The notes under the pieces were generated by a model. That model made no database searches. It saw nothing but the letters and a program-made list of their open reading frames with translations, and had not been told where the DNA came from. DNA of 64,000 nucleotides from Protoeuglena noctilucae (Eukaryota). The position numbers and the translations under genes are program-made. Of the stretch, positions 9,912 through 61,136 are shown piece by piece (the stretch's first letter is position 1; each line of letters starts with the position of its first letter). Where the stretch lies: positions 682,001 through 746,000 of the forward strand of contig OY253676.1 of the NCBI GenBank assembly GCA_958009085.1, written 5' to 3'.

Positions 9912-11143
9912 ATGCCGAAGAACAAGCGCAACAAAGTAGGCGAGACGCCATCGCGCTGTCCGCGGAGGGAGCGAGGGGGAGCCGCAAGTGGCACCTTGCC
10001 CTAGCCGCCTCCGCATCGCCGCGCCGCCACCTCTGCGGCCCGCGAAACGCTCAGGCTTTTTTCAGCAGCCGATGTCTACGTCTCGCACGTGGGCTGCCGG
10101 CCCAATGCCGGCTCGGGCCACACAGAGCGGCGCCCCGGCCCGCCGCTCTTGCGTGATGTGGGCTGCCGACCGCCGCCGCTCCCGTGCCGCTCGCCGCAGT
10201 CAGCCTGACCAAGGTCAAGAAGAAGGGCAAGGAATGGAAGGACGGGGTGGTGTCGCTGGTCCGCCAGGTGAGCCGCGGACGGCGCCGTCTCGGTGGGAAG
10301 GGGCGCCGGTGTCCTTGCGTCCCCGCGTCACGCCCGCCCCACCCCCCTGCGCCTCGCAGAGCCTGGAGAGTTATCCGTATGTGTATGTCTTTAGTTTCGA
10401 GAATTTGCGCAGCGAGGCGATGCGGCAGGTGCGCGACGAGCACAAGGAGACGTGCCGGTTCGTGATGGGTGGCACGAAGCTCATGCGCACGGCGCTGGGG
10501 AAAGGCCCGGAGGACGAGCAAGCGCCCCGGGTGTCGGAGCTGGGGGAGTACCTGCGCGGGCCGGTCGGTCTCCTCTTCACGCGGCTTCCCCACGACGAGG
10601 TCGAGGCGCTGGTGGCGGGATGCGCCAGCGAGGACTTTGCTCGCGCGGGGTCCAAGGCGACGCGGACCGTGGAAGTACCGGCGGGGCCGGTGTCGGGTCC
10701 AGACGGGCCGATGGCGCACACGCTGGAGCCTCAGCTGCGCAAGAACGGGATGCCGACGCGTCTTGTGAAGGGGGTGGTGGAGCTGGTGTCGGACTACACG
10801 GTCTGCCGGGAGGGCGCGGTGCTGACGTCGCAGCAGGCGACGCTGCTCCGGCACTTCGGGATCAAGATGGCCACGTTCCGGCTGGGATTGGTGGCCGTGT
10901 GGCGCAAGGGCGAAGACGGGTCCCAGGTGCGCTTGGGTGACGCTGTGCCTGCTTTCATCGACGAGCGACTGTGCACCAGCGGCGCTCTCGCTTGTGTGGC
11001 GCGTCACGCAGCCCGCGCTTCCCTCGCAGCCGGAGGTGGAGGTGCTGGACGAGACGTACCTCGACCGATTCCGGGAGCTGACCACGGAGGAGCAATGGGA
11101 GCAGCAGGGGTTCGCGGTGGAGGTCGAGGAGCGGGAGGAATGA
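9912..11143 (+). CDS. MRT4: Ribosome assembly factor MRT4 (uL10/P0-like)
   Basis: Exons 9912-9939, 10200-10267, 10360-10926 and 11030-11143 give MPKNKRNKVVSLTKVKKKGKE..DFARAG..HTLEPQLRKNGMPTRL. The first intron is GC-AG. Confidence 0.93.
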
Positions 11144-11485
11144 CGCGCGGGGAAGAGTCGCACATTGAATGGCGCGGGGACGCATCACGCTACCAGCGCA
11201 TGTGCTTAGAGTCCGCAACCGTGACGACCCACGCCCCGGTGAAGCCGCTGGGGTGCCACTCCACGGCCGCGCTCGACGGCCACAGCGGCAGCGCGCGGCC
11301 GGCGGCAGTGGCGGCGGCGGCGGCGCTGCTGGAAGCGTCAGCCCCGTGCTCCCGGCGGCAGTCCCTGGCCTGCCTCCCGGGCTCCTCCAAAGCCAGGACA
11401 GCCGCAGCCCCGCCGTGCTGCAGGCAGTGCGAGATGCTACCACATGAGTCCAGCAGCGTCAAAACATGGCTTGCTCGTTGACATC

Positions 11486-12425
11486 TCATAAACAGCCGTC
11501 GTTTCTGCGCTTCACCTTGGCAACGAGGTCTGCCGTCACGCTCCCTGCCCCCGGCGCCCCCTGCGCTCTCACGTCCTCCAGAACCGCCGACAAGCTCCCG
11601 GGCGCGTCGTGTGCGGCGTGCCGGCAGCCATTCGAGTCGTGGTCGCTGAGGACGGAGAGCCTCTGGTGCCCTCGCTCGTTGCAGCACGTCCACGTGAGGC
11701 CAACCCCGTTGAGCACCGCGCCGCTGATCAGCGTGCCCGGGTGGTGCCGGCAGCTCACGGAGCTGTTCTCGCCGTCGGAGAACTGCCGCCGGCACCGAAC
11801 GCACTCCCGCTGCGGTGCCATATGCAAAGGAACATACGGTTTGCATGCCATGCCACGGTAGCAAACACGCATGGGGGTCTGCGCCGCGGCAGTGGTCACC
11901 TTGGCGTGCAGTGCTTTCCAAGCTACTCGCACGGCCCTCTCGGGGTCGTGCACGAGTGCGATGTCCAGTGCGACGTCCGCGACGCGCGGGTCTGCAACTG
12001 TCAAGTGGGAGTGTTCGGCTGAGACGGCTCACAGGCTCACGGCATGGCACCTGCCGGTGCTCCACGCAGTGCAGGTTAGCAATCTGTCTCTCCTGTGCTG
12101 CTCGCCTTTCACGGCTCGTCGCATAGCGGCCCGCCACACGGAGTGGTTTGTGGCGAGCCAAAGGCGCGCGTCCGAGGAGACAGTGGAGAAATCCACGATC
12201 GATTGGATATCTAGATGAGTCAAGATAGTCTCCAGGATGTCGTCTGCGCAGTATGACGTGGTCAGGAGCGTGTATGAGCCGACCTGGCGTTGCGGTACTG
12301 CCCAGGACCGCGCAGTCGTCGCTCCCCAAGGCCGCCCGGCAAAGCAACGTACCGGGAAGGCTGAGAAGGTCGTCCTCCGCAGCTGTAGGTGGCTGGAGGG
12401 TTGCGAGGGAATCACTGCCAGCCAT
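11486..12425 (-). CDS. F-box protein with C-terminal Cys/His zinc-binding (CHORD/Btk-like) motif
   Basis: Spliced N-terminus LLSLPDDILETILTHLDIQSIVDFSTVS fits the F-box pattern. C-terminus is CVRC..CRHHPG..WTCC..GC..H. The middle intron boundary is uncertain. Confidence 0.65.
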
Positions 12426-12766: not shown

Positions 12767-13386
12767 ATGGGTCCCAAGGAGCCTAAGAGGAACGAGGAGG
12801 AGGAGGCGGAGGAGGCGGCGCAGCAGCCAGGCACGTGGCCCGCGAGAGGAGACCTGGCCGCCGTGCGTGGCCCGTATCCGTGCCCACGAGTCGCCCGCGT
12901 TTGCATACGCAGCGGAGACGTCTGGGGCTGGCGCGGAGCAGACGAAAGGGCTGAGCCATTTGGCGCAGCACGACACGGCGCGGGGGCGATCCGTGTCGGT
13001 GGAGAAGCTCACAGGTGCCCGCTAAGTAATCGTCCAATGCAAACTGTCAATGCATACCTGAAGCTGGGTACTGCTTGGAAGTTTCTCCATGCATAGTATG
13101 CATGCTTGGAGAGACGGCCTCGATCCACCGGCACGCAGGGGCCATGAAGGAGCTGGTGGCGGCGCAGGTGGAGGCGGACCAGGCGCGGCGGCAGAGAGAG
13201 AAGGAGCTCAGCCGAGTCAAGGTGTCGGATGCGGACGTGCTCGTCATCGCGAAGGAGTTCGAGGTGGACAAGCGCACGGCGGAGCGCAGGCTGCGCGAGA
13301 ACGCGGGCGACCTCAAGCGGACGCTGGAGTTCATGCTCGGGGCCGTCCCCTGCACCGTGGGGACCATGGCCCAGCGCGGCCAGTAG
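12767..13386 (+). CDS. HYPK: HYPK-like protein (C-terminal NAC/UBA-like domain)
   Basis: Exons 12767-12830, 12913-13014 and 13139-13386. C-terminus REKELSRVKVSDADVLVIAKEFEVDKRTAERRLRENAGDL is typical of HYPK. Confidence 0.82.
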
Positions 13387-13615
13387 CAGCGGCCGGTAGG
13401 ACTGCCGTGTCTGGCACCTCCTGCGGCCAGCTGTCACTGACTTGACGCATGCCGTGCCCGAAGCCAAGTCATTTGTGTGTGGTTGGAAGCGCTGGGTGTT
13501 CAATCGTTAGCTATTTGCTGCTACACCACTCTGAGGGTGCCCGCCGAATCTAGTTCCCTCGAGGGAGGCCTGCCGCTCGCTCTGGAGACGCTTCGTTGGC
13601 GTTGCGCCGAGGGTC

Positions 13616-15894: not shown

Positions 15895-18800
15895 TCACTG
15901 GCCCGTCAGGGACGACAGGAAGAGCAGGCCGAGGTCCGGCCTTGCCGTCATGAGGGCTCTGATCTCATCCGAGCCGTCTTGGCTGCAAGCAGTGTGGATA
16001 AGGTATGTGACAGGGTAAAGATATCGACATGTCTTGAGTACAGGGACACAGCAAGCGTCGCAGATGGCAGATGACGACGTGCATGGTGGCCAAATGCAAC
16101 AGCCAAGCTCATCTCTGTGCCTGCATCATCTCACGCATACGACATGCAACGACACGCAGCGCCGCACCTGAGGAGGGAGCCGGCAGGGCCAGGCCCGACG
16201 GCGGCAGCCACGGCTGCGAGCGCAGACAGGGGCTGGCAGAGACGGGCCACCTCTTGCTCTGACGACGCCCGGGCCAGGCGCCGCGCGACGAGGGCGATCG
16301 CCGGCGATGCGGCCGCGATGCAGCTCCACGCCCGCGCCCTGGCGTCCTGCAAGGCACCGCGTGGGTGGGGTGGAGGGTGAACCCCAAATGCCAGACTGGA
16401 ACACACAGAGGTGCCAAGGAGTCGTCGGTCACTGCGACGCGGATGTGGCAGAGACAGACACCCGCCCGGTCCACTCACCTCGTCGTGAGTGGCCCACCGG
16501 TCGCCATCGCCATCACCGTCGCCGCCTCCCTCTGCCGGCTCCAGCCACGCAGCCGCCGAAGCCACGAGGCCCAACGCGGCCCTTCCCAAACCACCCATCG
16601 CCTGCTGAGACTGTCCCCGCCCACCGCGCCCACTCGACGGCCCTGCATCACCTGCCGCGCTCGACATCGACGCCACACCTGAGGCGGCCCCTGCCAGGCA
16701 GAGGGCCACCGCGCCACCGAGGGTGCAGGGCCGGTCCACAGACGACGGATGCGATGCGTTAGAAGCAGAGGCGTCTGGGGTAAACCCCAGAATGGCCAAG
16801 CGATCCGCCCACGTCGGGTCCAGCACAGTGGCGCCATCAGGATGGGCCAACCAAAGCCCGGTATCCGGCAAGCCGGCCAGTACGCTGCAGGCAAAGCACG
16901 AACACATGGATGTGAAGTCGGTTCGCCGGTCTCGTGTCAGCGCAGTGCAAGCGCAGTGGTGCAGACTCAAGGGACACGACAGAGGGTACCTAGATGAAAG
17001 CAAAGAGTACTATCGTCAGCAAACCGCACCCCCGACCGTCACCTGACGGCCCCCGCGGCCATCTCCACGCCGCCATACAGCACACGTGCCAGAGCGTCCG
17101 CGTCGCCCTCGGCAGCTGTCGTCTCCTTGGGCCTTCCGTCGCCTGCGTTGCCATCACCGATTGCGCCTGTGATGACGACCGCTTGGCCCTGGAGCAGGCA
17201 CCCGACCCAGTCCAGCACCATCGCCGCCGATGCCGACAGGCGCTCGCACGCTTGGCTGGCTGCCATAGCGTCGCCCTTTGCGCCTGCCGCTGCCATCGCC
17301 TCTCGTCGGTGCGACGTGGCTCCCTTGCGCATCCCAGCACCCGCGTCCGGGGTGCCAAAGGCGGGGATGCCCCTGTGCGGCGCCGTCCATGCGCCAGCGC
17401 GGGCGGGCGACGCAGTGGGTGTGCGCATCTCCATGCCAGCGCCCGCCGTGGGTGACGACGGCGTCTGTGCCGGAAGGGGGGTCTTTGTAGACGCAGCCTT
17501 CGCCTCCCCCACCCCCGCTTGCGTGCGGGTCTCTGCGATGGAGACCAGACCGCCGGCAGCGGGGGACAACAGGTGCGTGATGGAGAGCCCAACCCTGCGC
17601 GAGAATGTGGGCGTCGTGTCACCACCACCAGCGCTCGCTCCTTGGCCGCCGTTGACGACGCTCTTCGCTGCTGCGAGGAAGGAAAGGACATGGTAGATGT
17701 CATGGAATCACTGGTACAACAAGGCTCAGGCTCAGGCTAAGTCAGAGCAGGGCCCGCATCTCGCCTGCTTCGAAAGAGACGGTGGGCGCGGCGCGGCCCG
17801 AGTGGTGCTGCAGCACACTGCTCGCCAGGGTGTACGGCGACAGGGGGACGCGCGACCGGGCGCCGGCAGGCCGGAGGGGCGACGACAGCGGTGCGGTGGG
17901 GGTCTCGGCGATGCCAGCGCCACCACCCTTTCGCAGCGGGGAGGCCGGGGCCACGCGGGGTGTCCCCGAGGGCGGGTGGAGTCCTTGCAGCTCAGCCAGG
18001 GGCGCACGGGGCGGGGTGCCGTCACCCCTGCGGCGCTTGGCGACGATGCCCACGGCGTCGGGCGAGGGTCCCAAAGCCCACGAAAGCTGGTCCGGGCCAC
18101 CCCCGGCGCTCGGACCCGGCCCCATCGACCAGCTCCGAACGTGATGGTCGGTGCGCGTGCCACTGCTGCCCTGCTGCAACGCGTCCGAACGCACGGCGCG
18201 GTGCCAGGTGCGCCCCGGCGGGTCGCCCCGGCGCCGCACGACTCCGCCAGTCGGCGGCAAAGGGCCCTTGGCAGAGCCGTCCGTGTGTGCCATGCGTGGG
18301 GCCAGCACAGCGGTCAGCGCTTGGACGGCGCAGGCGGCCAGGTGAGCACCTCCCGCCTGGTAGTGCGAAATACCCACGGCGCACCCCTCGCCACCCCTGC
18401 CGGCCTCGAGCGCCCCTGTGCACTTGGCAATCGATAGTGGCTCAGGTATCGGAGTGTCATGGGAGGCTGCTGTACACCACGACGGCGCGTCGCGCCCTGG
18501 GGATCCAGGCACAAGGGACCCGTGGAGGGCCTCTGCCAGCGTCGCCGACAGCGCCGCGAGGTGGGAGAGGGCCGCTGCGGGGCCCGCGACGGCGAGTGCG
18601 TCGGCCCAGAGCTGCGTGACGCGTGTCGCCTGGCCGAGTGTCGAGGATGGCGAGTCTCTTGATGGGCTCACGTGGCGCCCGGTGGGGATGCCGTTAGACC
18701 CCACTGGGCTGCCGTCCGGTGAGCTTGACGGCGTGGTGGGGCACAGGCACAGACCGAGGACGTGCGAGAGGATGCTGATGGCCGGGAGCGCCAAGGCCGC

Positions 18801-24363: not shown

Positions 24364-26839
24364 TCATGCGGGGACCATGACAGGGAGGCGGATGAGGCTG
24401 ACGAGGTCCTCGGCGATGCGGAAGGTGGCCTTGGGAAACCCGAGCTTGCGCGCCTTCGCCGCCAGGCTCTGCAGGAGGGCCGGGTCGGAGAACCACCGGC
24501 TGATGGTCTCGGCGGCCTTGTCGACTTTGGTCTCAAACACCCCGACGCCGTTGTCCGTGACGAATGAGATGTTGCCTTCCTCCTGGCAGGGCACGAAGGC
24601 GTTGAGGACCGTGGGGAGGCCGCAGATCATCGACTCCGCGATCGTGCCGGGGCCGGCCTTGGTGATGATGGCGTCGCACGCCCCCATCCACTCGTGCATG
24701 TTTGAGACGAACCCGTTCACCAGCACCTGCGCGCAGAGAAGAGGTTGCCATGCTGTGTTTGGCCTATCATCTAGCACGCGAAGCTCGTCCTGCGAGCGGG
24801 GCTGCATGCACACTGCTCACCTTCATGCCTTCGGGATACTGCAAGCCCTTGAGCTTGTTCACCAGAGCCTGATTCCTGCCGCAGATGACCACGACTTGGC
24901 CCTTGGGACCCAGGACCTTAGCCAGGGCCCGCACCTGCAGGCAACACGGCCAGCGCGTCACAACGCAACACAGCACGTTCCCGTCCCATCGCTCCAACAG
25001 TCGTTTGTCCCAGCCACGCGCCTGCTTCTCGACAGGGCCCATGCCCTCGCCACCCCCCACGACCAACACCGCCGGCTTGTCTGGCAGCAGACCCAGCGCT
25101 TTGCGGAGCTCCGGCTTGGACTTCATGTCCAACGAGAAGGCGGGGCGGATGGGGAGCCCGTGCAGCACGATCTTGTTCGACGGCACCCCGTACCTGAGCG
25201 CCGCCTGCCGCACCTCCTCTGCAACGAAAGCGGGGGCGGGCGGGGGTGTTGGAAACCGAGGCACACCCGGAACGCGGGCGGTGGCGCGCGTGCCTGCGGC
25301 CGTGGCGCGTGGTATGCGGCGCACGCACCCGTGGGGACGAATAGGCGGTCGACGCGCGGATGGAACCATGTAGGGTGGCATGTGGTGAGGTCGGTGATGA
25401 CGGTGCAGAAGGCGGGCTTGCGGAAGCCACGGTGGGCGCGCGCCTCCAGCACCTGAATGGGAACGTGCTGCAGGAGCGGATGCAGCGAGACGACGAGGTC
25501 CGGGTCGTACTCGTCGAAGGCCTGCGAAGAAGCAGCAGAAGTGTGAGTAAGCCTGTCGCTGCGTTGGGGCACTGGAGTGGCTGGGGGTGCCAAGTGAAGC
25601 ACGGGCGTGCCAGACTGCGTAGCTGCGGCCAGTTGAATGCCCCTCTGCAACAGCAGACGCTCGCCTTGGCGACGGTGTGCCCGACCATGGCACGCACGAT
25701 GCGCAGCTGTGGCACGTGGATGAGTTTGGGGGACGTCATGCCGTAGGCCGCGCGCCACAGGATGGGGTACTTGACCATCGTCGAGTAGGTCTTGGGTAAT
25801 TGGTTGTGCGGCCAGGGGGTGTAGTTGGACCACAGGTCGACGATGCTGCGGGCCACGAGCGATGCCCCACGATGCAGTGGTGACATGACGTGCGAACCAC
25901 CTGCCGCCATGGCGGCTGCAAAATAGTTGACTACTTCCCCTGACACTCAGCGGCACCAGGACTCACCTGATCTCGAACTTGTCCCCGTACAGGTGCTCAA
26001 TGGCGCCCTTGACGGCCAGGGCCGAGGCACGGTGGCCGCCGCCCGTGTCCGAAATGAGCATCATGATTCGGGGCTTGCCCGACCTCCGCTTTGTTGCGGG
26101 CTGGGGAGAGCCAAAGGGAAGGGTTCATAATTGCGCAGGAAAGGGGCTGCGAAGCCGTTCGCAGACCCCATGCGTAGCTCACCGAGGCCGGTGTGGGCTT
26201 CAGTTGCTCCACCTGCCCTGCCCACGCTTTGCCTACTCCTCCCTGCGGCGGTCGAGGGCGCCGGCGGGCGGTGACGGCGCAGAGACGACACGAGAGGCGC
26301 TTTGGAGCGGGAGCGCCAAGGTGACACCCTCGCGCGCGGCAGTGGGGCCCGCCTCGCCGAAATGCGAATGCCAACGCAAAGTTTCGTGGCACATCTCGTG
26401 TGGAACTCAGCGAGCTGTGCGAGAAACGGCCCCGATGCTTCCCGCTGCCGCGATATGCGGCGCGGGGCGGGGCACGGCCACCCGGCCGCTCGCGACGCAG
26501 GAACCCGTCGCGACACAATGTGCGGCTAGCTAGCACCCGACGTCGGTCAGGGATGCCCTGGAGAGGGAGCGAATTCCCTCCCTTGCGCGCTCGCTGGCCT
26601 CCGTGACGAGGCTCGCCGTGCTGCTGGGGAAAGCGCAAGCCCGCGGAATATACAGGCTTTCCCACCGCAGCGGCTGCAGCACTCACGAAAAAGGCCCCTC
26701 CTCCGCCCAAGATTCCCCCAAGGCGCCCGATTCCCGATCCCAGCCATCGCTTTGAGGCCCCCCAGCTGAGGCCTCGAGGCTGCCTGCGCCGCGCCCCGAA
26801 ACCCCCCAGGGAGCACTTTGGGGCCACCCTCACGCCCAT
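24364..26839 (-). CDS. MGD1: Monogalactosyldiacylglycerol synthase
   Basis: MLISDTGGGHRASA, PDLVVSLHPLLQHVP, TVITDLTTCHPTWFH, VVGGGEGMG, ICGRN and CDAIITKAGPGTIAE..VPCQEEGN. Two GC-AG introns. The N-terminal transit-peptide exons are uncertain. Confidence 0.95.
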
Positions 26840-27274
26840 TGTCGCATCCTGCGACCCTCCTCGAGGCGAGGGCCCCGCCATCGGCCCCGAATTCCACGCA
26901 ATCCCGCTCGACGACCTAATCTGAGGGAAGCAGAGCAGCGATGGTTGTGCGTTGCGATTCTTCGGGTCGCCATTTGTCCCCGCATCGGTGCGAAAGCGGC
27001 CCACGACGCAGGTCCGAAGTGTTTCACTGGCACATAAATATCAGAAATCTTGGGCGCGTTTAGGGCCACCACGAGTTGCCGAGGACAGTTCATCTTGCGT
27101 CCTAACCACCCCGCGAAGCGCTGGAGAGACTAGGCTCGGCCTGGCAGTTCTCTACTCGCGACTAGGGCCCAAACTTCACGGCACCTTTCCAGGGATCGGT
27201 GGCTAGACAGCTCTGTACGGCGTCGGCGCGTCCGGGGGCATTGCGCAGGGCGCCGGGGCGACACAGCTGGCAGC

Positions 27275-28048
27275 ATGGGGGACGCCGAGCAGGCGAGTCC
27301 CGCCCGAGCCTGCCCCGGTCGCCCGGGCGCGTAGACAGCCTTGTTGTGTGTTCATCAAGCGTCCGACTTCCGAACTGCCGCGAACGGAGCTCCGCGCCGT
27401 GCGTCCAGGTGACCCTGCGGGCCAAGGAGGGGCAGGAGTTCTCGCTGCGGAGGGAGGTGGCGCTCAAGATGAAGGTGCTGGCCGACATGCTCGAGGAGGA
27501 CATCGAGCGAACGGCGATCCCCGTGGACGTGGAGGGGCCCGTCCTGGCCAACGTGGTGACGTATTACAACTGGCACGCGGACAACGAGGGCGCGCCCGAC
27601 TCGGACAAGAAGGCGTATGACCAGGTGCGGCACCGAGTCGCGCTGGGGGCGTTCTGCGGTCCGGGCCAACGCGCGGCGCCCAACGCTGCCACCTCGCCGT
27701 GCCCGCAGGCCTTCCTCTCCAACATGAAGAGGGCGATGCTGCTCGAGACCATGATTGCGGCCAACTACCTGCACGCAACGGAGCTCTTGGATGCCACGGT
27801 CGTGTTCTTCGGCCGCCTCATCTCCAACAAGGACCCGGACGGGTGAGGCCCGCGGTTCCAGCACACAAGCATGCCTACGCTTTCGCCCGTGCTCGGCACC
27901 GCTCAGCAACTCGGCGCTGCCTCTCGGCCGCAGCATCCGCGAGGTCCTCGGGATTCAGACGCCGTTCCAGCCGGGGGAGATCGAGGCGGCCATCGCGCAG
28001 AACCGGTGGACATTCAAGGTGGACACCCCGCCCGCCCAGGCCAATTAG
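27275..28048 (+). CDS. SKP1: SKP1-like protein (divergent)
   Basis: Exons 27275-27292, 27409-27624, 27709-27842 and 27934-28048: VTLRAKEGQEF..IPVDVEGPVLANVVTY..MIAANYLHATELLD..IREVLGI..NRWTF. Confidence 0.85.
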
Positions 28049-28178: not shown

Positions 28179-29118
28179 TTAGTGCGGCTGGTCACGCCAC
28201 TCCACGAGCTTGTCAAGGGTCTCCTCCGACACGTTGTACTGCGGCAAGGGAGCTTGAGGGGGTTGTTTGAGAGCACGAATGCCCCGTGCACGGAGAGCAC
28301 AGGTCAGGGGGATGTGCATGCAGGCACTGCGGAACGGACTGATGCGGTGATACTGTCCAACGTTTCACCTTGCTGAGAATCTGCTTTAGCTCCCTCTTCT
28401 CCTTGTCCACCATCACTGCGTAGCCCTTGGGGTCCTCCAGCTGTTGCTGCGACGCCAGAGAGGACGAGCACGTCATTGCCACCGCACATCCACGGCGCTG
28501 TACATGCTGGACTGCGGTTGCTTGCGCCACTGTATGGTGAGAGCAAAAGATCCGCGGCGCTGCGGAACTTGCCCGGCGACGCGCGTTGGCAGCGAGCGAC
28601 TTGAGCATCTTAATCTCCTCCCGCTTGAAGAAAATGTTCTCCTCCGCCGACTCCTTGTCCTTGTACGAGCGGATCCCCTCCACGCTGAACGTGCGAGCGC
28701 CCAGCGCAGCCCTGCGGGAGCAAGCACTCGTTCCCGCGCCGCTTGCGAGCTAGCACGGACTCTGACGGCATCCTCGCAAGCTAGAAAAGTCGCAGAAACG
28801 TGATACGTCGCCAGAGATGGTCGGCCCGGCGTGCCAGGCCCCCAACAGCAAGCGCAGGGGGAACGGAGGGCACCGGCGAGGGGAGCGCGCGGTTCCCCCT
28901 CGCAAGCCTGCCAGCGGCCGGAGTAAAGAGCGTTCTACACAGGAGAGAGACGACTCGGCTACAGCGGCGCCCGATGCGCAAGGTAACCGCGAGCGACGTG
29001 TCCCCCCTCCCCGTGCGACTCGCAGGGCTGCCATTAGATCCCAACGCGCCGATCATCTTATCGCTGACCTGATGCTGCCGCACGCCGGCGAGCTCGCGAG
29101 CCTGCGGAGGAGCGACAT
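28179..29118 (-). CDS. Small mitochondrial protein, F1-ATPase inhibitor (IF1)-like
   Basis: 4 exons give MSLLRRLASSPACGSIRAALGARTFS (presequence-like) then VEGIRSYKDKESAEENIFFKREEIKMLKSL..LDKLVEWRDQPH*. The E-x-A-x-E-N-x-F motif is typical of IF1. Confidence 0.65.
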
Positions 29119-40638: not shown

Positions 40639-42581
40639 TCACTCCATGCCCAGCGCGAACTTGCCCATGTTCTTCCGCACCGCGTCCAGGTGAGCGTTGT
40701 GCCTGGCCAGGCCCTGGCTGAGCAGCTCGGACCCTGCGAAGCAAGTGCAAATGGCACCGACCTCACAGCCAACCACCCTGAGCTAGGCGCTAGGTAGAAG
40801 AAGTTGCCGCACACATCTCTCTCCTCCGCAAGCATGCTGCTGCGCACACGCACGCACCCGTGCCCTCACCGCACACGCTCTTCTCGAGCATGGACCGGAA
40901 CGTGGCCTCGTCCAACACTGGCACCGTGTCTTCCCGCAGCTCCACCCGTCGCGCCGCCTCCGCGTCCAAGCGGCGCTCCACCGCGCCCACGCCCTCCCCG
41001 GCACCCGACAGGCCGTCGTTGTACCCCGCGGCGGTCGGCGTGTTGGCCAGTTCCTCCACCACAGACGCGGGCGCCACGATGAAGTCCGCCCCGGCCACCG
41101 CCAGCGCGTCGGCGCGGGATGCGACGCCAGAGACCATGACGCGCGTCCGGGGGTAGAACTTCTTGACGTAGTTGAAGATCTGCGTCGTCAGCGCCAGGCC
41201 CGGGTCCACGGGAGACCGGTAGCCCGAGTCCTCACGGGGCCTGCGGGACGGAGAGGGCGAGTAAGCTGGCAAATGAAGCAATGGCTCCCTCCATGACTGC
41301 CCTGTCAGTGCTTGTTCCATGCGCTCACCCGTAGGGATCCCTGACGACCCCCGGGTGCGTCTGGTACCAGGATCGCGTCCTGCCCATCGACACTTGCAGC
41401 ACCGACACCCCCGCCTGCGCCGCGGCGGCCGCCTGGGGGAAGCTGTACACGAAGATGGCGTGCGTGGCGTAACCCTCCTCCTGCAAGCACGAAAGCAGGA
41501 ACCCATGACTCGGTAGGGTTCCAAACAACCCGCTCATACTGGCAACAGGCGAAAGCAATGCACATGCACACCTCGAGTGCCTTCATGGCCTGGATGCCTG
41601 GCCACGTGGCAGGGATGCGCATCAGCAGGCGGTCCTGCGCGACACCGGCCTGCCGGTAAAGGCGCCCGATGGCCCTGGCGCGCGCCACCACCGCCTGGGT
41701 GTCCCCCGCGAGCCGGGGGTCGATCTCCGTCGAGATGCGGCCCGTCACGGACTGGGCCAGCATCGCCCCGACGTTCACTGCGGGACACGAGCCGGGTGCC
41801 GCGCGCTGTGTGAGCAGGAATCAGCCGGGCCGGGAGGGTCACGTTGAGGGTCACGTCACGTCACGTGACAGGGGTCTCACCGAGGGCCAGGTCGATGCGG
41901 TACGCCTCGAGCGCCGACACGTCGCCGAAGGAGGGGTAGTTGGCGGGCGGCGCCGCGACCTGGAAGGCGTTGGAGATGGCGGACTTGAACGCGCCGGAGA
42001 CGTTCGGGTTGTCGAGGATGTTGAACAGCAAGTCGATTGTCGACGCCGCCGCGGCGTTCTTGGGGCCGTCCTGCGAGGCGTAACAGCAAGGGTTCAAGAC
42101 CCTGTTAGGCGATCTGAGGTGCAGCCGTGCAACTGCACTGCGACGGCAGGTCCCTTGCCTGCATCGTGATCTCGATGGTGTCGGACAGCAGCTGCGACAT
42201 GGAGGTCAGGTCTTCCAGCTCCGAGCCCCCGCCCACGCTGGACGGCGGGACATACTGCGGACAGAGCGACCGGATGACCTTGAGCTCGGATTAGGGACAG
42301 GCTCACCTCAGCGAGCGACGGGCGGGGCAGTTCCCTAGCCCGCGTGCTTCCTCGCCCACCCAACGCTCAAGCCACAATCAGGGGGATCCCCGGCACCGCA
42401 TGTCGAACGCAATCACCTTCTCCGTTCCGTTGGCCGTCGCCTGAGCCCTGGACATCCGCAAACACGTCGCGCGGGGCACGCCTGCCCTGACGTGGCCCAT
42501 GACCCGCGCGGGAGATGCCCCGTCACGGGCCGTCGCCATCGCCGCCCGCAGCGAGGACGACATGGAAGCGATTGACAGCAT
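40639..42581 (-). CDS. Plastid transaldolase-like protein (catalytic Lys replaced)
   Basis: Transit-like N-terminus, VTGRISTEIDPRLA, LLMRIPATWPGIQA, FVYSFPQAAAAAQAGVSV and DPGLAL..IFNY. 6 introns, one GC-AG. Confidence 0.88.
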
Positions 42582-43023: not shown

Positions 43024-45719
43024 ATGATCAAGTCACGGGCGCGCAGCTCGCAGAGCAGGAGGCGGGAGAGGAAGCAGGACGAGCTGCCGAAGCTCGATGA
43101 GTTCCTCACGAAGAGGGACTATGTCGGGGCGCTGACGCTCGTTGAGTTCCTGCGGGCATCCAAGCAAATGCAGAACCAGGTGGGTGGCCGCGCTTCGAAT
43201 CGCCGGCGTTGCGGGGGGGCTCCGGACTTACGGTCCGACCTTTTGTTCCGACGAGGGCGCGGGGCGCTGTGCCTGGTACGCCGTCTGGGCCCCCGCGCCG
43301 CGGGGCAGAGGGGCATGCGGGGCGTATGCGAACTCGTTTGCCGCGACCCTGCGGAGGGGTCCTCCGGCCTCAGAGATCCACGACGGACACGTTGGCTGTA
43401 CGCGCGTCCACTTCTGCTCTGCAGGAGTCGCTGGAGTGGCGCGGCTACTGCCATTTCCACAACGGCGAGCACGACAGGGCGCTGGCTTGCTACCAGGAGC
43501 TGCAGCGGCTTCTGGAATCCGATCCGATGTATCACCTTTACATTGCCTGCTGCCACTACTACATGGGTGAGCCTTCAAGCACGCGTCGCCAATTCGGCAA
43601 GTCCGCATTTGCGCAGCGTATGGACAGCCGACAACCCTGGCCGCGCCCGACCGCAGGGGAGTACAAGGAGTGCCTGCAGGCGGCGAGGAAGGGTCCCAAG
43701 TGCCAGTTGCAGGCGCGCGTGCTGATGCACGCGGCAAACAAGCTGGCGGACGACGACACGGTGGTGGAGATGCATGGCCGCTTGCAGGCGGACGACTTGC
43801 AAGACCGCCTGTCTCTCGCGGCGCTGCACTACATGCGGGGCACGTACGAGCAGGCTGTCGACATATACAAGAACATCATGGTGCGTTGACCACGTCATCA
43901 CCGCGCGGTGCGGGTCCAGCTTCGGTCCCCATGCCCGAGACCCACCCTCCCGACCCTCCGCGCGCAGGTGGAGCACAAGGACTTCTTGGCGATCAACGTG
44001 TACGTGGCGCTGGCGTACGCCAAGCTGGATTACTACGATGTGTCCAACGAGGTGCTGGGGGTGTACCTGACACAGTTCCCTGACTCGGTTCTGGCCATTA
44101 ACCTCAAGGCGTGCAACCAGTTCCGCAAAGGCCTGGTCAAGGAGGCGGAGGAGGAGCTGCGGGTCGTGGAGAAGCTGGGGTAAAAGCCGCAGCACACTTT
44201 GCTTGCCGTGCGGCCGCCCCGGCTGGGCCTGCTGCTCCAGCGCCAAGGTTGCACACCGGCTCGGGGCTATCGCAGGGGCAGCATCGCGGACCACGACCTC
44301 GCGCGCCACAACCTGGTGGTGATCCGGAACGGGGAGGACGCCCTGCGGGTGCTGCCGGCCCTGGGCGACGTGCCGCACGAGGCGCGGCTCAACCTCTGCA
44401 TCCACTACATCAAGACGGGCGCAGTGGATGAGGCGTTCGCGGTCGTGCGGGACCTGGAGCCCCGCCAGGCCGAGGAGTGGATCCTCAAGGGCATCACCCA
44501 CATGCTCCTGGGGCAACAGAAGAACTCCACCGAGCACCTCCGACTCGCACGCGAGTACTTCCAGGTGACCTGAGGGGCCGTGTACCCTGGGGGCTGAGTT
44601 GCTTGTGGATGAGCAACGGAGCCTTGCAGCTTGTTGCCAGTGCAAGGCTGGTCGATGCAGACGGGCTGGCCCCTCAGTGCTTGCACCGTCGGCCCTGCCC
44701 TTGCAGACGGTGGGGACGGCCGAGAGCGACTGCGACACGATCCCCGGGCGGCAGGCCATGGCGACGGCCTTCTTCTTGGCGGGGGCGTTTGAGGACACCA
44801 ACATCTACCTGAGCTCTATTGCCGAGTACATGCAGGACGACCAGGACTTCATGTGGAACTACGGCATCTCCAAGGTGCGTATTGTATGGGACGCACCAGC
44901 AGCACCAGCGGTGTGTTTGTTCATGCTTACTAGCGAACTGTTACTGTGACAGTTACAGTCAGGTCGTCGCTACTACGGTGCTCGGTGCCGCCGGGCCGCC
45001 CTTGTCGATCGTTCACGGCCCCGCTTTGCAGGCGTCTGTGGGGGAGTTCCACGAGGCGCTGAAGCTGCTGCAGCGCGTCACGGACGCGCGCCTGCGTGCC
45101 GACTTCGTGTACCTGTCCTGGCTGTGCCGGTGCCTCATCATGACGGGCAACACCAAGGCGGCGTGGGAGGTGTACCACCAGGTGCGGCAGTGACTGCAAG
45201 GGCGACTGCATGTCCAAAGCACGACTGGGCGGTGGTAGATGTGCATGAGATATGTAGATGGCTTAATCTTAATGTAATGTAGATGCTGTGTCGTGACCGC
45301 AGATGGAGTCAACCAGGGACGCCGACACGCTCCTGCAGCAGATCGCCAACGACTGCTACCGCATGGGCCAGTTCCTGTACGCGGCCAATGCGTTCGACAT
45401 CCTGGAGCGCTCCGACCCCAAGCACCCGGACTACTGGGTCGCGAAGAGGCGAGCCGGGGCGGGTGCCTTGTTCGCGAGCAGATCGCTGTCGCTGCAGAGC
45501 AAGATGGGTGTCGTGCAGGCACGCGACCTCGCTAGTATGCTGTCCTGTGTCGCAGGGGCGCATGCGTGGGTGTCGTGCAGATGGTGCTGGCGGGGAAGGA
45601 GAGCCAGGACTCGATACGTGAGGTGTGCCAGCTGCTGGCCCAGCCGACGAACCAGGAGGCGGAGCAGCTCTACGACGTCATTAGCAACTGGGCGGAGGCC
45701 AACGGCCTGGCGGACTTGA
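43024..45719 (+). CDS. IFT56: Intraflagellar transport protein 56 (TTC26/DYF-13)
   Basis: PKLDEFLTKRDYVGALTLVEF, AINVYVALAYAKLDYYDVS, DCDTIPGRQAMA, IANDCYRMGQF and YWVAKRGACVGV. 8 introns. Confidence 0.96.
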
Positions 45720-52681: not shown

Positions 52682-53304
52682 GCCGCCGGCCCTCGGCCAT
52701 CGGCCCGCCCGGGGCGGGGCTGCTCTGCATGCGGCGGGCCTCTGTCGTGATGCCCCACGCGCCTTGGGCCCCGGCAGCCGCCTGCCCCAGCCCGCGCCTA
52801 GTTCGCTCTCTGGAGCTCGATCGCCGCGCTTGCGTTTCCTAGTATTATTTGTTCCATGGACGCATGGCTGCGGCGAGATGCACAGGGGATGTGCCCACGC
52901 TTGAAGTGCAGAAGCAGGACTCTTACTCTAGCGCTTCACTTAGCGCCACCTGCGCTGCCTGCCTTAATTCAGACCTCACACCTGACGGCAGCGCGCCGGG
53001 GTGCTCTCAGCTGCAGACCGGCGGCTCCAGACGCAGGTGACTGGCTGTGGCAGCTGACATGCAGCCTATGACGCATGGGTGACGTGGGCAGTGCTGCGTG
53101 TCGTCACGCCCCCTTCCTGACAGGACACACAGCCACTGGCAAGTTTGAGACCAGCTTGCTTGATGGAACTTACTCAGCTGTGTCACTGACAGGCGGCGGC
53201 TCGACTCATGTCCACTCCCCCAATATGTGGTCCCTATCCGTCTCCTCCCTTGGCCTCCACGGCTGAACTTATCGTGTCGTTGCGCATCTCCGCCACAGGA
53301 AGTC

Positions 53305-56535: not shown

Positions 56536-58269
56536 TTACCTGACCCACCGGCCCACACCGCCCTCGTCCCCACCCAGCCCCGCCAGGTCCCTGAACCGCA
56601 GGTGGTGGTTGTGGAAATGGCGCAAAACGTACGTTACCCCCCGCACGTGGCCCTTGCCCACGACCCCCACCACCGTCCTGCGAGCGTCGCTAAGGAAGCG
56701 TGTCATGCCGTCGTCCATGATTCGAAGCAAACATAATAACCGGGGTCGATTGGTCAGCAAGAATCGACCTCCGCTGCAACCCCAACCGCCCTCGCGCGCA
56801 CCTGCACCCGTTCACCGCTCGCGACCGCTTCAGCGTCCACCCCAGGTACAGATCCCTCTCGTGCAGCATCGCACGAGCCAGTCCCTGCGGCACCCCTTCA
56901 CGCTGCATGACTCCCGCCAAATCATCCGCCAATCCCGACCCACGCAGCGCCCCCGACTCCCCAACCGTCCGCACCGATGCCTCCGTCCCCGCCCCGCTCG
57001 CCACCCCTTGCGTACCCGCGACACCCGCCGACCCTGCTCGCAGATCGCTGCGCTCTGCCGCTTGGGCCCGGACCGCGTCCACCCTCGCCCGCACCTCCTC
57101 GCCTCCGCGCATCCCACTCCCGACCAGCGCCGCCAGCACAGCCAGCCTGTCGCGCCGCCCCAGCAGGTCCCACGCCCGACGCAGCGTGATCTCGATGGGC
57201 CGGTCCCCCAGCACCACCTGCGCCCCGCACGCCTCCGCCGCTGCCCGCGCGGCCCTCATGTCCGTCCCCGGGACCGTCCCCGCCGCGCGCATGAGCGATC
57301 CGTACATGGCACTCACTGCAATCTGCATCAGCAGCCCCGACTGACCCCCGAGCCTGGCGGAGCGAAGTGCGGCCTCCCAGGGGCTTCTGCCCCAAAGCCC
57401 AGTGGAGTTGAAGGCTTTCGAATCACTTGCGTCCGCATCGTCGAGGTACAGGACGCCCGAGCGTGACCGGCACAGCTCCACCACGACGCACTGAGGCCCA
57501 ACGGCCGCCTGCAGGGGGTGCTTGCGGCCGCTGCTTCCATCTGGCAGCACAACACGTGCAGCCACGCAGCAGCCAACATGGCCATGCGCTGCAGTCGGCG
57601 ATCGGCGCGGAACTCACAATCACTCGGCCCACGTGGCCGGCGCTCTCGTTGCTCCAGTGGTCGGTGCCCACCAGAAACACCACCTCAGGCTCCTGCGAAG
57701 AGGGTTAGGCATCGACAATAAGCAAGACCGTCTGGATGGTATCATACATAGTATCTGCCTTTGGATAGCCCTGCTCGCCTGGTAACCGTCGGAGCGGCGC
57801 TCGACGTAGGCAGCGGGGCGCATGACGGCGACCACGACGCCCGCGTCGAAGAGGTCCTTCAGTTCCGGGTGGACGTTCACAGCCCACGCCGCGTCCGCAG
57901 CGCCGTCTTCGCTGCAGGACAGGAGAGACGCCGTGGCTGTTGCTTCGCGACGGCACCCATCTCACTCTAGGGCTGCATGCGAGCCGGATGCGAGCATGCA
58001 AGGGCTCCATTGCCTCTAGTTAAAGCCTCTCACCTGTGATTGTACCCCGCTGGCGGTCCCTGGTTCGCGAAAGCACGCACGGCAGCGTCGTCCCCGCTGC
58101 CGTTGCCCCCGCTTGTGACGCGGCCCAGCTCACCACCTCCACTGCTCAAGCCGTGTACTGCTTTCACGGACACAGCGTCCCGTCGACTCCGGAAGCATGC
58201 GGGGGCAGGGGAGGCCACAAAGAGCGAGCACGAGCGCAGCACGGGGGCCCGCATGCCGCCGCCACGCAT
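56536..58269 (-). CDS. TraB/PrgY/gumN domain protein, organellar
   Basis: EPEVVFLVGTDH, VVVELCRSR, VVLGDRPIEITLRRAW, LHERDLYL and VVGVVGKGHVRGV. Transit-like N-terminus. One GC-AG intron. Confidence 0.88.
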
Positions 58270-58695
58270 GCGAGGCTCGGGCCAACTGGCTTGCTAACTT
58301 GTAATGAGGAGACGCTCTCAGGGGTGTGGAGCCAGTCAAGTTCCAGCCCAGCGAGCAGCCAGATTGCGAGTGTTGGCGCAAGTACACCTGGGTTTCTGCC
58401 ATTTACAATCCTCTAATCAGGCTGCGCGTGGATATTGTCCAGCACTGTTCCACCACCGAGCATTGCAGGCCGCCCGCTGTGACTGCCACGCCGTAAATTC
58501 TCAAGCGACGAGTTCTTCGCGCAGGAGGGGCTGGGCGGCCGTCGTCGCGGTTTGACAGGCAGGTCAGCTGACATGGTGGGAGAGAGGAATCCAGAGTGTG
58601 GCTCAGGCAACGCGCGGTGGCCGCTCCTGGTTCAATTCCGCTTGGCCGCTGGGATCATCGACCGTTGGCCAATACCGCCCGCGCAGAGCCAGAAG

Positions 58696-61136
58696 ATGCA
58701 CCGGAAGGGCAACAAGTGGTATGACGACGACGATTTGGATTACGAGGTGCGGGTTAGCGGCCAATGGATGGCGCGGCGACTCCAGCGCTGCGTGCCTGGG
58801 ACCCCCCCACTCTCATGCCCCTCTCATGCGTCCCGTGGCTCTAGGAAGACGACTACTACGACGACTATGATGAACCTGGACCTGCTCCTAAGCCGCAACC
58901 AAAGTGAGGGGGTCGTCTGAGCGAAAAGCGCCGCGGCGAGGGGTTGCATTGTTCTTCACACATGCTGCCGTGCCTCATGGCCGCAGACCAGCGGCCGCGA
59001 GCAAGCCCGCGAGCGCGATGGCAGCGGCGGTGAAGCCACCGGCGAAGAAGGGCGGCAAGGGCGCACAGCAGGCGCCTCCCCAGACCTTCCCGGCCGCTCC
59101 CCAGGGCTCGGCCTTTGATTTCGCGATGCCAAGCCCCGATGACGAGGCGAGGCGGGCGCGGAGGCGGCCGGGCGAAGCACCGGGAACCTCCGCCGCCGCC
59201 GCCCCGGCCCCTGCGGCCCCCGCCACCGGCCCCGTCCCTGCGTACCGCCCCCCGGCGTCGTTCGTCCCGGACCCGACCGTCCTCGCCCAGTGCCGATCTC
59301 TGGCGGACGCGGAGGCGGAAGGCGCGGGCGGCAAGGGCCGGCTGCACCTTGCCGTGCTGGGTCACGTGGACGCCGGCAAGAGCACCCTGGTGGGTCGCGT
59401 GCTGCACGAGGCGGGCGAGGTGTCGGCGCAGCAAGTGGCGCGGGCGGCGAGGGAGGCGGAGCGGCTCGGGAAGGGCTCCTTTGCGTGGGCGTTCTTGCTC
59501 GACGAGAGGAGCGACGAGAGGGAAAGGGGAGTCACGGCAGACGTCGGCACAGGTGCGCGGTGCAGCGTAGGGCCACGGTGGGAACGGGACAGTTGCGAAG
59601 CAGAGCGGAACCGAACTGAACAACGAGGGGAGTTGTTGGCGTGATTATCATTAGCTATCTCCTTTCCTTGCATAGGACTGTGCAGGTACCCCACCACACA
59701 CATGCACCCCCATTCGATCCAACACGCACACCGCCGCCCTCTCCCCTCGCAGCCGTCTTCCAGACCCCCCGTCGCGTGGTGACGGTCCTGGACTCGCCCG
59801 GCCACCGCGACTTCGTGCCGAAGATGATCGTGGGCGCTGGCATGGCCGATGCCGCTGTGTTGGTCATCGATGGGGCACTGGGGGGCTTTGAGGCTGGGTT
59901 CAAGGAACCTGACTCGGGCCCGGGGGCCAACCCGGCGGCGGTGGGGGGCCAGACTAGGGAACACGCGCACCTGGCGCGCAACCTGGGCATCGTGGCGCTG
60001 GTCGTGGCCATCACCAAACTCGACACGGTCCCGGGCGGGGCGGCGGCGGCCCAGGCGCGCTTCGCGGCCATCCGCGAGGACCTCGGGGTGTTCCTGGAGT
60101 CGGTGGGGTTCGAACCCGCGCGCGTCAGCTGGGTGCCCGTGGTGCCGACGCTGGGCGAGAACGTGGCGGCTGCCCCGTCTCCCAAAGGGGCACTTGCGTG
60201 GTGGGGTGGGCCCACCCTCCTGGGGGCGGTGGACGCGTTGCCGGTGCGGGAGCGGCCCGTGGTGGCGCCGGCGAGGGTGACGGTGGCGGAGGTGGACAAG
60301 AAGCGGGGCCTGGGGGTGTATGTGGGGGGTCGTGTCGAGGCAGGGGCGCTGCGGGTGGGGTCGCGGGTGGTGGTCATGCCGGGAGGCGAGACTCACGTAG
60401 TCAAGGGCCTGGAGGTGCATGGGCGAACCGTGGAGATCGCGCGGGCGGGGGATGCAGCGGCGGTTGGGCTGGGCGATGCGGATGCGGTGACGCTCCGGCG
60501 GGGCTGCGTGGTTTGCGAGGCGGGGTTTCCGGTGCACGTGGCCCGGCGGGTCGCATGCGAGGTCGCCGTGATCGACACTGCCATTCCCATCATCCCGGGG
60601 TTCCAAGGCGAGGGTTGGGGTGGGATGGGGTGGCGCGTGCCACGCCCTTTGCGCTTGCGGCGGTTGATGTGGGGGTATCGCGCAGAACAGGTGTCGCACC
60701 CTCGCCTGGTCTTGCGCGTCGGCGATAGAGTCTAGGTCCAAGACCATCCTCGGGCTCCGTGTCGCGCAGGCGTGCTGCACATGCACACCGACTCCGCGGA
60801 GTGCACGGTCGAGAAGCTCGTGTGCCTCAAAAACACCCACACGGGCGAGGTAATCCGGGAGAGGCCGCGGGTGCTCAACCAGGGGCAGGTGACACCGCAG
60901 AATGCCACAGTTCCTTCGCGCTCCGCTGCACTTACACGTTCGGCCATCGCCGTCGCACCCGCCCTCACAGCACCGTCGCTGCCTCCGCTCGCCCGCAGTG
61001 CGCCGTGGTCCACTTGCACGTCCCGAGCGGCATCTGCTGCGAGGCGTTTGCGGACATCCCCGCCCTGGGCCGCCTGGCGGTGCGGGACGCGGGCCGCACG
61101 GTGTTTGCGGGGGTGGTCGTCGAGGTGCTCGAGTAG
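58696..61136 (+). CDS. HBS1: HBS1-like translational GTPase
   Basis: Acidic N-terminus YDDDDLDYE, G1 GHVDAGKST, GKGSFAWAFLLDE..ERERGVT, DSPGHRDFVPKMI, GQTREH, and C-terminal LGRLAVRDAGRTVFAGVV*. Confidence 0.9.

Follow-up and report, generated by a model that had tools for sequence, protein, structure and literature searches.

In the window analyzed here, a 64-kb stretch of DNA from a GC-rich (∼66%) marine green-lineage alga, the evidence supports real GC-AG introns at about 10 times their usual frequency. The usual GC-AG share is 1 to 2%; the window (64 to 70% GC by base composition) holds 13 such introns among ∼102 coding introns, or ∼13% (95% confidence interval, 7 to 21%), a count that departs strongly from a 1% rate (P = 4e-11). 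The 13 sites are scattered across 51 kb and 12 genes, from a total of roughly 23 to 26 genes in the window. Ordinary U2-type introns, with GC composition pressure acting on a tolerant donor, very probably explain what is seen in the window, and the raised rate may extend genome-wide.

Sequence and splicing of the GC-AG introns

A first-pass annotation of this DNA had proposed 13 GC-AG introns with the donor consensus AG|GCRMG. Both the ends and the consensus proved right at all 13 sites, each of which starts with GC and ends with AG at the coordinates given below. Its base counts were also right: G occupies −1 and +5 in 13/13 donors and A occupies −2 in 12/13, the exception being the IF1-like gene (GG|GCAAGT). 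All 13 have a purine at +3, followed by A or C, and every donor reads GCGAG, GCAAG, GCACG, or GCGCG. None of the 13 GC donors has the ATCC that is conserved in U12-type donors behind their first two or three bases. The acceptors are C/T rich and of the ...GCAG type, the same as in the GT introns. The sites are best explained as U2-type (major-spliceosome) introns in which C replaces T at the second donor base. The annotation had also described the nearby GTs that it checked as out of frame. This needs correcting: each site has, within 75 nt, 5 to 38 in-frame GT-AG alternatives that create no new stop codon. These rivals score poorly as donors, except at the genes called NUB1 (GT at +4) and NPSN (GT at −36).

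Precise removal from RNA-derived sequence, at the exact claimed ends, was found for 4 of the 13 introns. Contigs from the metatranscriptome runs X1, X2, and X4 and from the DNA-like run X7 were compared with positions 24900 to 44899, where 15 of 42 joints were listed. Among these 15 were intron 1 of SKP1 (27293..27408, plus strand; cag|GCGAGT, phase 0; joint in X2 and X4), the intron of a small IF1-like gene (28447..28572, minus strand; cgg|GCAAGT, phase 0; X1, X2, and X4), and that of a SNARE gene called NPSN, which encodes a V-SNARE_C domain (38020..38197, plus strand; aag|GCAAGC, phase 0; X1, X2, and X4). Each joint was present in two or three RNA runs and none in X7, and no GT-AG reading exists within the permitted shift of any of the three joints; at SKP1, that shift allows no reading of splice-site type except GC..AG. 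At NPSN, the RNA makes no use of an in-frame GT donor located 36 nt upstream. The exons of the IF1-like gene have no Pfam match, and its name is a putative label carried over from the annotation. The fourth case is intron 1 of MRT4 (9940..10199, plus strand; tag|GCGAGA, phase 1), whose spliced model equals database protein P0043 at 258/258 residues. Because the source contigs of P0043 are at most 922 nt, too short for the unspliced gene of 1,232 nt, MRT4 is shown to be spliced. The MRT4 N terminus, MPKNKRNKVVSLTK, matches MRT4 proteins of chlorophytes.

Five further introns are supported by homologues that continue across the joint, with exact spacing in four and a less strict fit in the fifth. 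In IFT56 (45449..45555, plus strand; gag|GCGAGC, phase 2), splicing restores ..YWVAK-R-GACVGV.., and 6/18 homologues show EYWEGKRGACVGV in gap-free alignment with it. The intron of a TraB-family gene (57693..57778, minus strand; cag|GCGAGC, phase 0) is similarly bridged: the joint rebuilds ..YVERRSDGYQ|EPEVVFLVGT.., ungapped against 8 among the 150 homologues listed, of which P0175 is one example that has the rebuilt motif. For the HBS1-like GTPase gene (60608..60769, plus strand; aag|GCGAGG, phase 1), alignment to structure chain 5lzw_jj places the end of the upstream exon at 624/625, the split codon at 626, and the downstream exon from 627. The eRF3a chain 4d61_i is equally continuous (339/340, 341, and 342), and the downstream exon matches Pfam GTP-eEF1A_C from profile position 22. 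Two introns belong to the monogalactosyldiacylglycerol (MGDG) synthase gene. The exons flanking the first, MGD1a (25522..25664, minus strand; aag|GCGAGC, phase 0), match Pfam MGDG_synth at positions 25 to 79 and 86 to 145, and 6 residues fill the 6 intervening profile positions. At the second, MGD1b (24935..25021, minus strand; cag|GCGCGT, phase 0), the upstream exon stops opposite residue 229 of Arabidopsis MGD1 (4wyi_A), and the downstream exon rejoins it at residue 246, from its own 11th residue. Splicing would leave a loop 6 residues shorter than that of Arabidopsis MGD1, and reading through would insert 29 residues. The spliced form fits Arabidopsis MGD1 better than the read-through form, which lends the MGD1b intron moderate support.

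The remaining four sites, in HYPK, RIF1, NUB1, and TAL, are claimed as candidate GC-AG introns from coding frame and the gene finder only. Each GC donor was forbidden in turn in the gene finder and the score loss was recorded in nats. The candidate first intron of HYPK (12831..12912, plus strand; cag|GCACGT, phase 1; loss of 10.4 nats) lies two exons upstream of the UBA domain. A long low-complexity gene, called RIF1-like, contains the next candidate (17671..17764, minus strand; cag|GCGAGA, phase 1; 6.3 nats); none of its exons has a Pfam match, and its name is a putative label from the annotation. The smallest margin of the four, 4.3 nats, was obtained for a UBA-domain gene called NUB1 (30302..30469, plus strand; cag|GCAAGT, phase 0), where a GT donor at 30306, four bases downstream, competes in combination with an acceptor at 30482; the only contig listed for this region is unspliced and of low depth. 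The largest loss, 14.3 nats, belongs to a transaldolase-family gene, TAL (42071..42158, minus strand; cag|GCAAGG, phase 0), for which coding statistics give third-position GC values of 0.93 and 0.96 in the flanking frames and all seven in-frame GT alternatives are poor. The TAL joint is not among the 15 listed of 42, and the sole homologue found begins just past it. The gene finder also called a possible 14th GC-AG intron, absent from the annotation, as the first intron of the gene called NUB1 (29394..29550, plus strand; gag|GCGAGC...CTGCAG).

Frequency of GC donors and compensation at other positions

The denominator of the GC-AG rate came from a self-trained gene finder and counts coding introns only: 98 to 108 in the 64-kb window, or ∼4 to 5 per gene. 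Given this range, the ∼120 introns of the first-pass annotation are plausible if untranslated regions are included. The finder recovered 12 to 13 of the 13 claimed introns and predicted 13 to 19 GC donors, compared with 4 to 5 for the decoy donor GG and 5 to 6 for GA. Its GC share, whether started at 0.02, 0.15, or 0.4, converged to 0.18 to 0.20. Of the seven extra GC calls, about six seem to be false, since they span fused gene models or use weak sites, which leaves ∼13 to 14 GC donors among ∼102 introns.

The rate could still be overstated through wrong GC calls where a neighboring GT is the true donor, mis-modelled genes, or a local fluke, with a true genome rate within the 5 to 8% known from GC-rich chlorophytes. 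We regard this as rather unlikely. Consistent with it, the four candidates have support from coding frame and the gene finder only (NUB1 with a strong GT at +4), and the finder makes ∼4 to 6 false alternative-donor calls per window. Moreover, the 9 verified introns among 102 (8.8%) are indistinguishable from 7 to 8.5% (P = 0.29 to 0.50), and even 13/102 differs from that range only at P = 0.03 to 0.09. On the other hand, GC-AG introns account for 3/17 of the RNA-supported set, the 13 sites are spread over many genes rather than clustered, and the four candidates have strong donors and acceptors whose removal costs 4 to 14 nats.

GC donors in the window show classic compensation: outside +2, they come closer to the canonical donor consensus than GT donors do. 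Such a pattern is reportedly general for GC donors, as is said of work by Burset in 2000 and by Thanaraj and Clark in 2001. With donor strength scored as matches to CAG|GTAAGT at the seven other positions, the mean was 5.15 for the 13 GC donors versus 3.73 for 86 GT donors (P = 3e-6), a difference that is partly built in, as the annotation and the gene finder both favor strong-looking GC donors and weak ones, if they exist, would escape detection. The RNA set is small (3 GC and 14 GT donors) and is the only one free of this bias, not having been selected by donor type; in it, the GC donors had 6, 6, and 5 matches versus 2 to 5 for the GT donors (P = 0.004). A at +3 was found in 5/13 GC donors versus 2/90 GT donors (P = 3e-4). 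The GC share rose with donor strength, from 0/36 at two to three matches to 4/47 at four, 4/14 at five, 4/5 at six, and 1/1 at seven. This dose-response, in which a stronger remainder of the donor goes with C at +2 more often, is evidence for a simple threshold model of pairing with U1. Given the classic compensation, no variant U1 is needed.

Comparison with other GC-rich algae

Raised GC-AG use in GC-rich algae is already published, and the window adds a green-lineage case. In the haptophyte Emiliania huxleyi (65% GC), GC donors account for 135/241 curated junctions (56%), a level that is ascribed there to genome GC content, and prediction restricted to GT breaks down (Feldmesser et al. 2014, PMC4028052). 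On these figures, E. huxleyi resembles the window as a GC-rich marine alga with GC donors far above 1% and the acceptor AG kept; it differs in having a GC-donor majority, whereas in the green-lineage window GT is the norm and GC makes up ∼13%. The pelagophytes Aureococcus anophagefferens (∼14 to 17%) and Pelagomonas calceolata (∼14%) have a very similar GC-AG share and are likewise GC-rich marine algae; the figures are predictions from annotation and are ascribed to GC content (bioRxiv 10.1101/2024.10.30.620910). Unlike the window, with its several coding introns per gene, these stramenopiles are given only 0.2 to 0.9 introns per gene.

Several GC-rich green algae also show a raised noncanonical share. 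Supplementary file 8 of Pucker & Brockington 2018 (PMC6310983), in a column that pools GC-AG with AT-AC, lists major noncanonical sites at 8.5% in Ostreococcus tauri, 7.0% in Micractinium conductrix, 5.7% in Chlorella sorokiniana, and 5.6% in Micromonas pusilla, compared with 1.1% in Arabidopsis; in the accessible part of that paper's main text, the algal values are left without discussion. The window estimate of 12.7% (confidence interval, 7 to 21%) tops all 121 species in the table, although not clearly so statistically. The same source gives small shares for further GC-rich members of the green algae, namely 0.7% in Chlorella variabilis, 0.03% in Monoraphidium, and 0.3% in Gonium, and GC content alone is therefore insufficient as an explanation, although these low figures may reflect GT-only annotation pipelines. 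The compensated GC sites of animals and plants are likewise U2 type with a stronger consensus elsewhere, but they make up ∼1% of introns (∼1% of human introns in the abstract of Kralovicova et al. 2011, PMC3167603), compared with ∼13% in the window, where about half of the genes carry one. The ∼1% that the first-pass annotation took as typical of eukaryotes is thus incomplete, since published figures place several GC-rich chlorophytes at 5.6 to 8.5%, pelagophytes at 14 to 17%, and Emiliania at 56%.

It is doubtful that this genome holds a green-lineage record, with a GC-AG share above 10% genome-wide and about half of its genes carrying such an intron, intermediate toward an Emiliania-like GC majority. 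A change affecting U1 or donor-proofreading proteins might have contributed to a share of that size. If true, it would offer a tractable system for a shift in spliceosomal donor preference under GC pressure.

Causes and consequences of GC donor use

The most likely cause would be composition pressure toward G and C acting on a tolerant splice site. A donor that pairs well with the 5′ end of U1 would have AG at the exon end, A and G at +4 and +5, and in many cases A at +3. Where such pairing exists, T or C at +2 would be nearly neutral and the site could drift to C, while weaker donors would be forced to retain T. Such neutral drift is a plausible source of the GC donors, which conventional U1 presumably recognizes. 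Inside the introns, GC content is 64% and C/(C+T) is 0.61, the latter near the 5/6 GC share of the strongest donors.

The first-pass annotation had favored relaxed or adapted 5′ splice-site recognition, possibly driven by extreme GC content or a variant U1 or U6. The link to GC content fits both the intron composition and the literature; relaxed or adapted recognition is not called for, as the donors compensate. We consider it improbable that adapted machinery (a U1 variant, altered U6, or protein contacts) accepts C as well as T at +2. The ∼10-fold excess of GC-AG introns would fit such machinery, as would the fact that, among annotated green algae, the rate does not follow from GC content alone. 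However, machinery indifferent to +2 would put GC donors at weak sites too, whereas they number 0/36 at two to three matches and 5/6 at six to seven, exactly the restriction that ordinary U1 would demand. No snRNA gene was found within the 64-kb window.

No evidence was found that an error in sequencing or assembly put C at +2, or that RNA editing restores U there, either of which would make these introns GT-AG. Such a reading is scarcely credible; it is contradicted for the sites in 24900 to 44899 by X7, one contig of which spans the entire 20-kb stretch with no differing letters, and by unspliced X1 contigs such as that over the SKP1 donor region (27177 to 27706), for which no differing letters are listed. 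The single difference listed across the stretch is 39987 A>C, in X4.

With composition pressure on an ordinary U2-type donor as the preferred reading, the window extends the haptophyte and pelagophyte pattern, GC pressure on the donor dinucleotide itself, to the green lineage. The finding opens no new question; its practical consequence is for gene prediction, as a predictor limited to GT donors would corrupt roughly every second gene model in the window. Restricting the gene finder to GT donors lowered its total score from 2516 to 2321 and reduced the number of RNA-supported introns that it recovered to 5 to 12 of 17.

Evidence for GC-AG splicing at individual sites

The high use of GC-AG introns in the window is real and well observed. 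The first-pass annotation had described 13 such introns sharing one donor pattern, and all 13 of the claimed intervals (MRT4, HYPK, RIF1, two in MGD1, SKP1, IF1, NUB1, NPSN, the transaldolase-family gene, IFT56, TraB, and HBS1) indeed have GC at the 5′ end and AG at the 3′ end. G is present at −1 and +5 of every donor and A at −2 of 12/13; likewise, all 13 donors carry R at +3 and A or C at +4. These donor sequences led us to reject a U12-type identity. Independent support was obtained for 9 of the 13 sites. The remaining four (HYPK, RIF1, NUB1, and the transaldolase-family gene) are retained as candidates. The regions surrounding the first three are poorly conserved, and a homologue search for the fourth (intron 42071-42158, minus strand) returned one match, database protein P0150, which starts just past the joint.

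Three metatranscriptome runs (X1, X2, and X4) and one DNA-like run (X7) were aligned to positions 24900-44899, a stretch with 7 of the 13 sites. Assessment covered the 15 joints listed of 42; both MGD1 joints and those of NUB1 and the transaldolase-family gene lie outside those listed. The SKP1, IF1, and NPSN introns accounted for three of the 15, and each of these claimed junctions was seen in at least two of the three RNA runs and never in X7. The other 12 listed joints were GT-AG, as were two further introns recovered from the pieces of one contig, giving an RNA-supported set of 14 GT-AG and 3 GC-AG introns. Within the ambiguity of the SKP1, IF1, and NPSN joints, no GT-AG reading was found. 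Low-depth unspliced contigs from X1 span 27177-27706, 30018-30498, and 25177-25550. The SKP1 introns left in place here are spliced out in X2 and X4, and we therefore read these contigs as pre-mRNA or DNA carry-over. Scans of metagenome contigs for spliced transcripts of the same organism gave 598 pattern matches for the NUB1 exon and 410 for the transaldolase-family exon, none of which was confirmed.

The MRT4 junction provides a fourth direct confirmation of GC-AG splicing. The large MRT4 exon, used as a query, retrieved database protein P0043 (258 residues), which derives from contigs of ≤922 nt, and the spliced MRT4 model matches it at every residue. The unspliced gene takes up 1232 nt of the window, and P0043 must therefore stem from spliced RNA. 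The GC-AG intron restores the N-terminus MPKNKRNKVVSLTK, in agreement with other green-algal MRT4 proteins.

Homology across the joints supports further sites. The conserved motifs that the first-pass annotation had seen rejoined in IFT56 and TraB held up: YWVAK-R-GACVGV aligns without gaps with 6 of the 18 IFT56 homologues found, and YVERRSDGYQ/EPEVVFLVGT does so with 8 full-length TraB homologues, chosen among 150 listed as those reaching the N-terminal part. In HBS1, the upstream exon ends opposite residue 624/625 of the HBS1L chain 5lzw_jj and the downstream exon picks up at 627, with room for exactly one residue, that of the split codon; an eRF3a chain gave the same outcome. The exons flanking the first MGD1 intron (25522-25664, minus strand) match positions 25-79 and 86-145 of the Pfam model MGDG_synth, with six residues between them for six model positions. 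For the second (24935-25021, minus strand), alignment to Arabidopsis MGD1 offers moderate backing for splicing, which would leave a loop six residues shorter than in Arabidopsis, versus a 29-residue insertion upon read-through.

One element of the earlier reading called for correction. The nearby GTs checked there had been described as out of frame, yet in-frame, stop-free GT-AG options exist near all 13 sites (5-38 within 75 nt). The donor scores of these alternatives are poor except at NUB1 and NPSN. The in-frame GT donor 36 nt upstream in NPSN is unused according to the RNA joint. At NUB1, CAG/GCAA/GTGAGA contains a good GT four bases downstream of the GC donor; this rival, at 30306 against 30302 for the GC donor, costs just 4.3 nats of score in our gene finder when paired with an acceptor at 30482, which is weak and lies 13 nt past that of the GC-AG intron. 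The names RIF1-like, IF1-like, and NUB1 received no confirmation from Pfam on the predicted exons.

Intron count and GC-AG rate

Introns were counted with our own two-strand gene finder. It models coding sequence as a 3-periodic Markov process, scores splice sites by donor and acceptor matrices, and treats intron length as an explicit term. Training used long open frames and RNA-supported introns first and the finder's own output thereafter. The predictions comprised about 20 genes with 98-108 coding introns; 12-13 of the 13 claimed sites and 9-14 of the 17 RNA introns were among them. Whether started at 0.02, 0.15, or 0.4, the fitted GC share settled at 0.18-0.20. When only GT donors were permitted, the total score fell from 2516 to 2321, and just 5-12 of the 17 RNA introns were recovered. 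In control runs, the finder was offered GG or GA as a decoy in place of GC, and its donor matrices were initialized solely from GT introns. Predicted introns in the window numbered 13-19 for GC, 4-5 for GG, and 5-6 for GA; the finder therefore has a background of approximately five false alternative donors per window.

This background matches inspection of the seven extra GC calls. Three join separate genes that the finder wrongly merged: 13374-13611 spans HYPK and a DnaJ gene; 45720-46331 spans IFT56 and a DUF220 gene, and IFT56 homologues stop before it; and 52674-53016 spans the LCIB and PI-PLC genes via a 20-nt exon. Another three (35958-36162, 35457-35600, and 33278-33607) have weak sites and fall in a gene that the finder modelled poorly. 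The seventh, at 29394-29550, looks genuine and is kept as a candidate GC-AG intron.

The best estimate of the GC-AG rate is 13 of ∼102 coding introns, or 12.7% (95% confidence interval, 7.0-20.8%) in one 64-kb window; against a 1% rate, P = 4e-11. The earlier manual count of ∼120 introns is plausible if one allows for introns in untranslated regions and for genes that the finder did not predict. For annotation, the distribution serves as a warning: the 13 GC-AG introns are spread over 12 of the roughly 23-26 genes in the window.

The finder also missed a plus-strand gene at 39400-40400 with an RNA-supported GT-AG intron (40236-40344). In the SNARE gene, RNA introns at 36847-37032 and 37105-37355 (plus strand) flank a 72-nt exon (37033-37104) that the finder skipped.

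Donor strength and comparison with other algae

Across the seven other donor positions, GC donors averaged 5.15 consensus matches versus 3.73 for GT donors, a comparison that is partly circular because readers and gene finders pick strong-looking GC sites. The RNA-supported set, which is small and not selected by donor type, gave 6, 6, and 5 matches for GC donors versus 2-5 for GT donors (P = 0.004). The GC share rose with the number of matches, from 0/36 at two or three to 4/47 at four, 4/14 at five, 4/5 at six, and 1/1 at seven. GT donors are nearly all GTG (G at +3 in 95% and A in 2% of 86), and A at +3 occurs in 5/13 GC donors versus 2/90 GT donors (P = 3e-4). The donor consensus of most eukaryotes is GTAAG or GTRAG, from which the strongly GC-shifted GTG donors of the window differ. 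Acceptors in the window read ...(C/T)GCAG, the ratio C/(C+T) inside introns is 0.61, and GC content is 64-70% throughout.

We read these patterns as probably reflecting a threshold model. A change from T to C at +2 or from A to G at +3 adds GC and loosens U1 pairing, and each donor would tolerate a limited number of such pairing-weakening changes; in donors that are strong elsewhere, +2 would then drift toward compositional equilibrium. As judged from donor sequences, the threshold model needs no altered U1, and the adapted U1 or U6 suggested by the first-pass annotation does not appear to be called for.

In most animals, fungi, and plants, ∼1-2% of introns are GC-AG, and genome GC content correlates with splice-site GC content (Frey & Pucker 2020). 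GC donors occupy 135 of 241 curated junctions in Emiliania huxleyi (PMC4028052), and predicted GC-AG shares are ∼14-17% of introns in Aureococcus and ∼14% in Pelagomonas (bioRxiv 10.1101/2024.10.30.620910). Major non-canonical shares are 8.5% in Ostreococcus tauri, 7.0% in Micractinium conductrix, 5.7% in Chlorella sorokiniana, 5.6% in Micromonas pusilla, and 1.1% in Arabidopsis, with further GC-rich green algae near zero in the same table (Pucker & Brockington 2018, PMC6310983). The near-zero values may reflect GT-only annotation. Every species in that table falls below the estimate for the window, with the top of their range not clearly separable from it: P = 0.03 against 7% and 0.09 against 8.5% for the 13 sites, and P = 0.3-0.5 against these two rates for the nine verified sites alone. 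The Volvox paper gives 1-2% non-canonical introns, and the Pycnococcus genome paper holds nothing on splice sites. Among the papers listed in searches of the GC-AG literature on green algae and Chlamydomonas, no title or abstract opening concerned a high rate in a green alga. Published work on other GC-rich algae, including green species, already covers both the phenomenon and its likely cause.

Gene content and lineage

Genes in the window are densely packed and rich in introns. A Pfam search of 115 predicted exons identified MRT4 (Ribosomal_L10 and RL10P_insert), HYPK (UBA domain), a DnaJ protein, MGDG synthase, SKP1, a V-SNARE, a transaldolase-family protein, IFT56 (TPR exons), an HBS1-like GTPase, a WW-FF protein, methyltransferases, and an isochorismatase. 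An LCIB/LCIC-type beta-carbonic-anhydrase gene lies at 51310-52678 on the plus strand (LCIB_C_CA, E = 1e-33 and 4e-27 in two exons), with a Ca-dependent PI-PLC-C1 family gene directly downstream (53690-54860, plus strand). The very long minus-strand gene at 15895-22255, labelled RIF1-like in the first-pass annotation, has ∼1646 predicted residues, 896 of them in one exon; it is Ala/Pro/Gly-rich, and no exon has a Pfam match. An Rfam scan of the window gave no matches to snRNAs or any other family.

Among the named sequences in the MRT4 search, the best matches come from chlorophyte green algae (51-54% identity), followed by land plants (∼47%) and Ostreococcus (47%). The organism thus belongs within the green lineage, not near any named genome in that search. 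Proteins of its nearest relatives (P0001, P0044, and P0045) show ∼70% identity. Between 25% and 53% of the words of one 10-kb stretch of the window are present in marine metatranscriptome runs. The sole base difference listed over 20 kb is A>C at 39987 in one X4 RNA contig (depth, 6); thus, RNA from the environment scarcely differs from the assembly.

Two RNA contigs carry introns of both strands in one piece. One from X4 (27111-29068) runs from SKP1 (plus strand) into the IF1-like gene (minus strand), and one from X2 (39909-41239) joins the plus-strand intron 40236-40344 with minus-strand introns of the transaldolase gene. Convergent neighbors therefore overlap at their 3′ ends or abut closely enough for joint assembly. 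Two odd joints with extra letters, 36081 to 33679 in X2 (backwards, 32 letters) and 27509 to 44134 in X4 (2 letters), may represent chimeric contigs. Finally, the IFT56 gene is complete (43024-45720, plus strand; eight introns) and 56-59% identical to the better-matching homologues found, which implies that the alga builds flagella at some stage.
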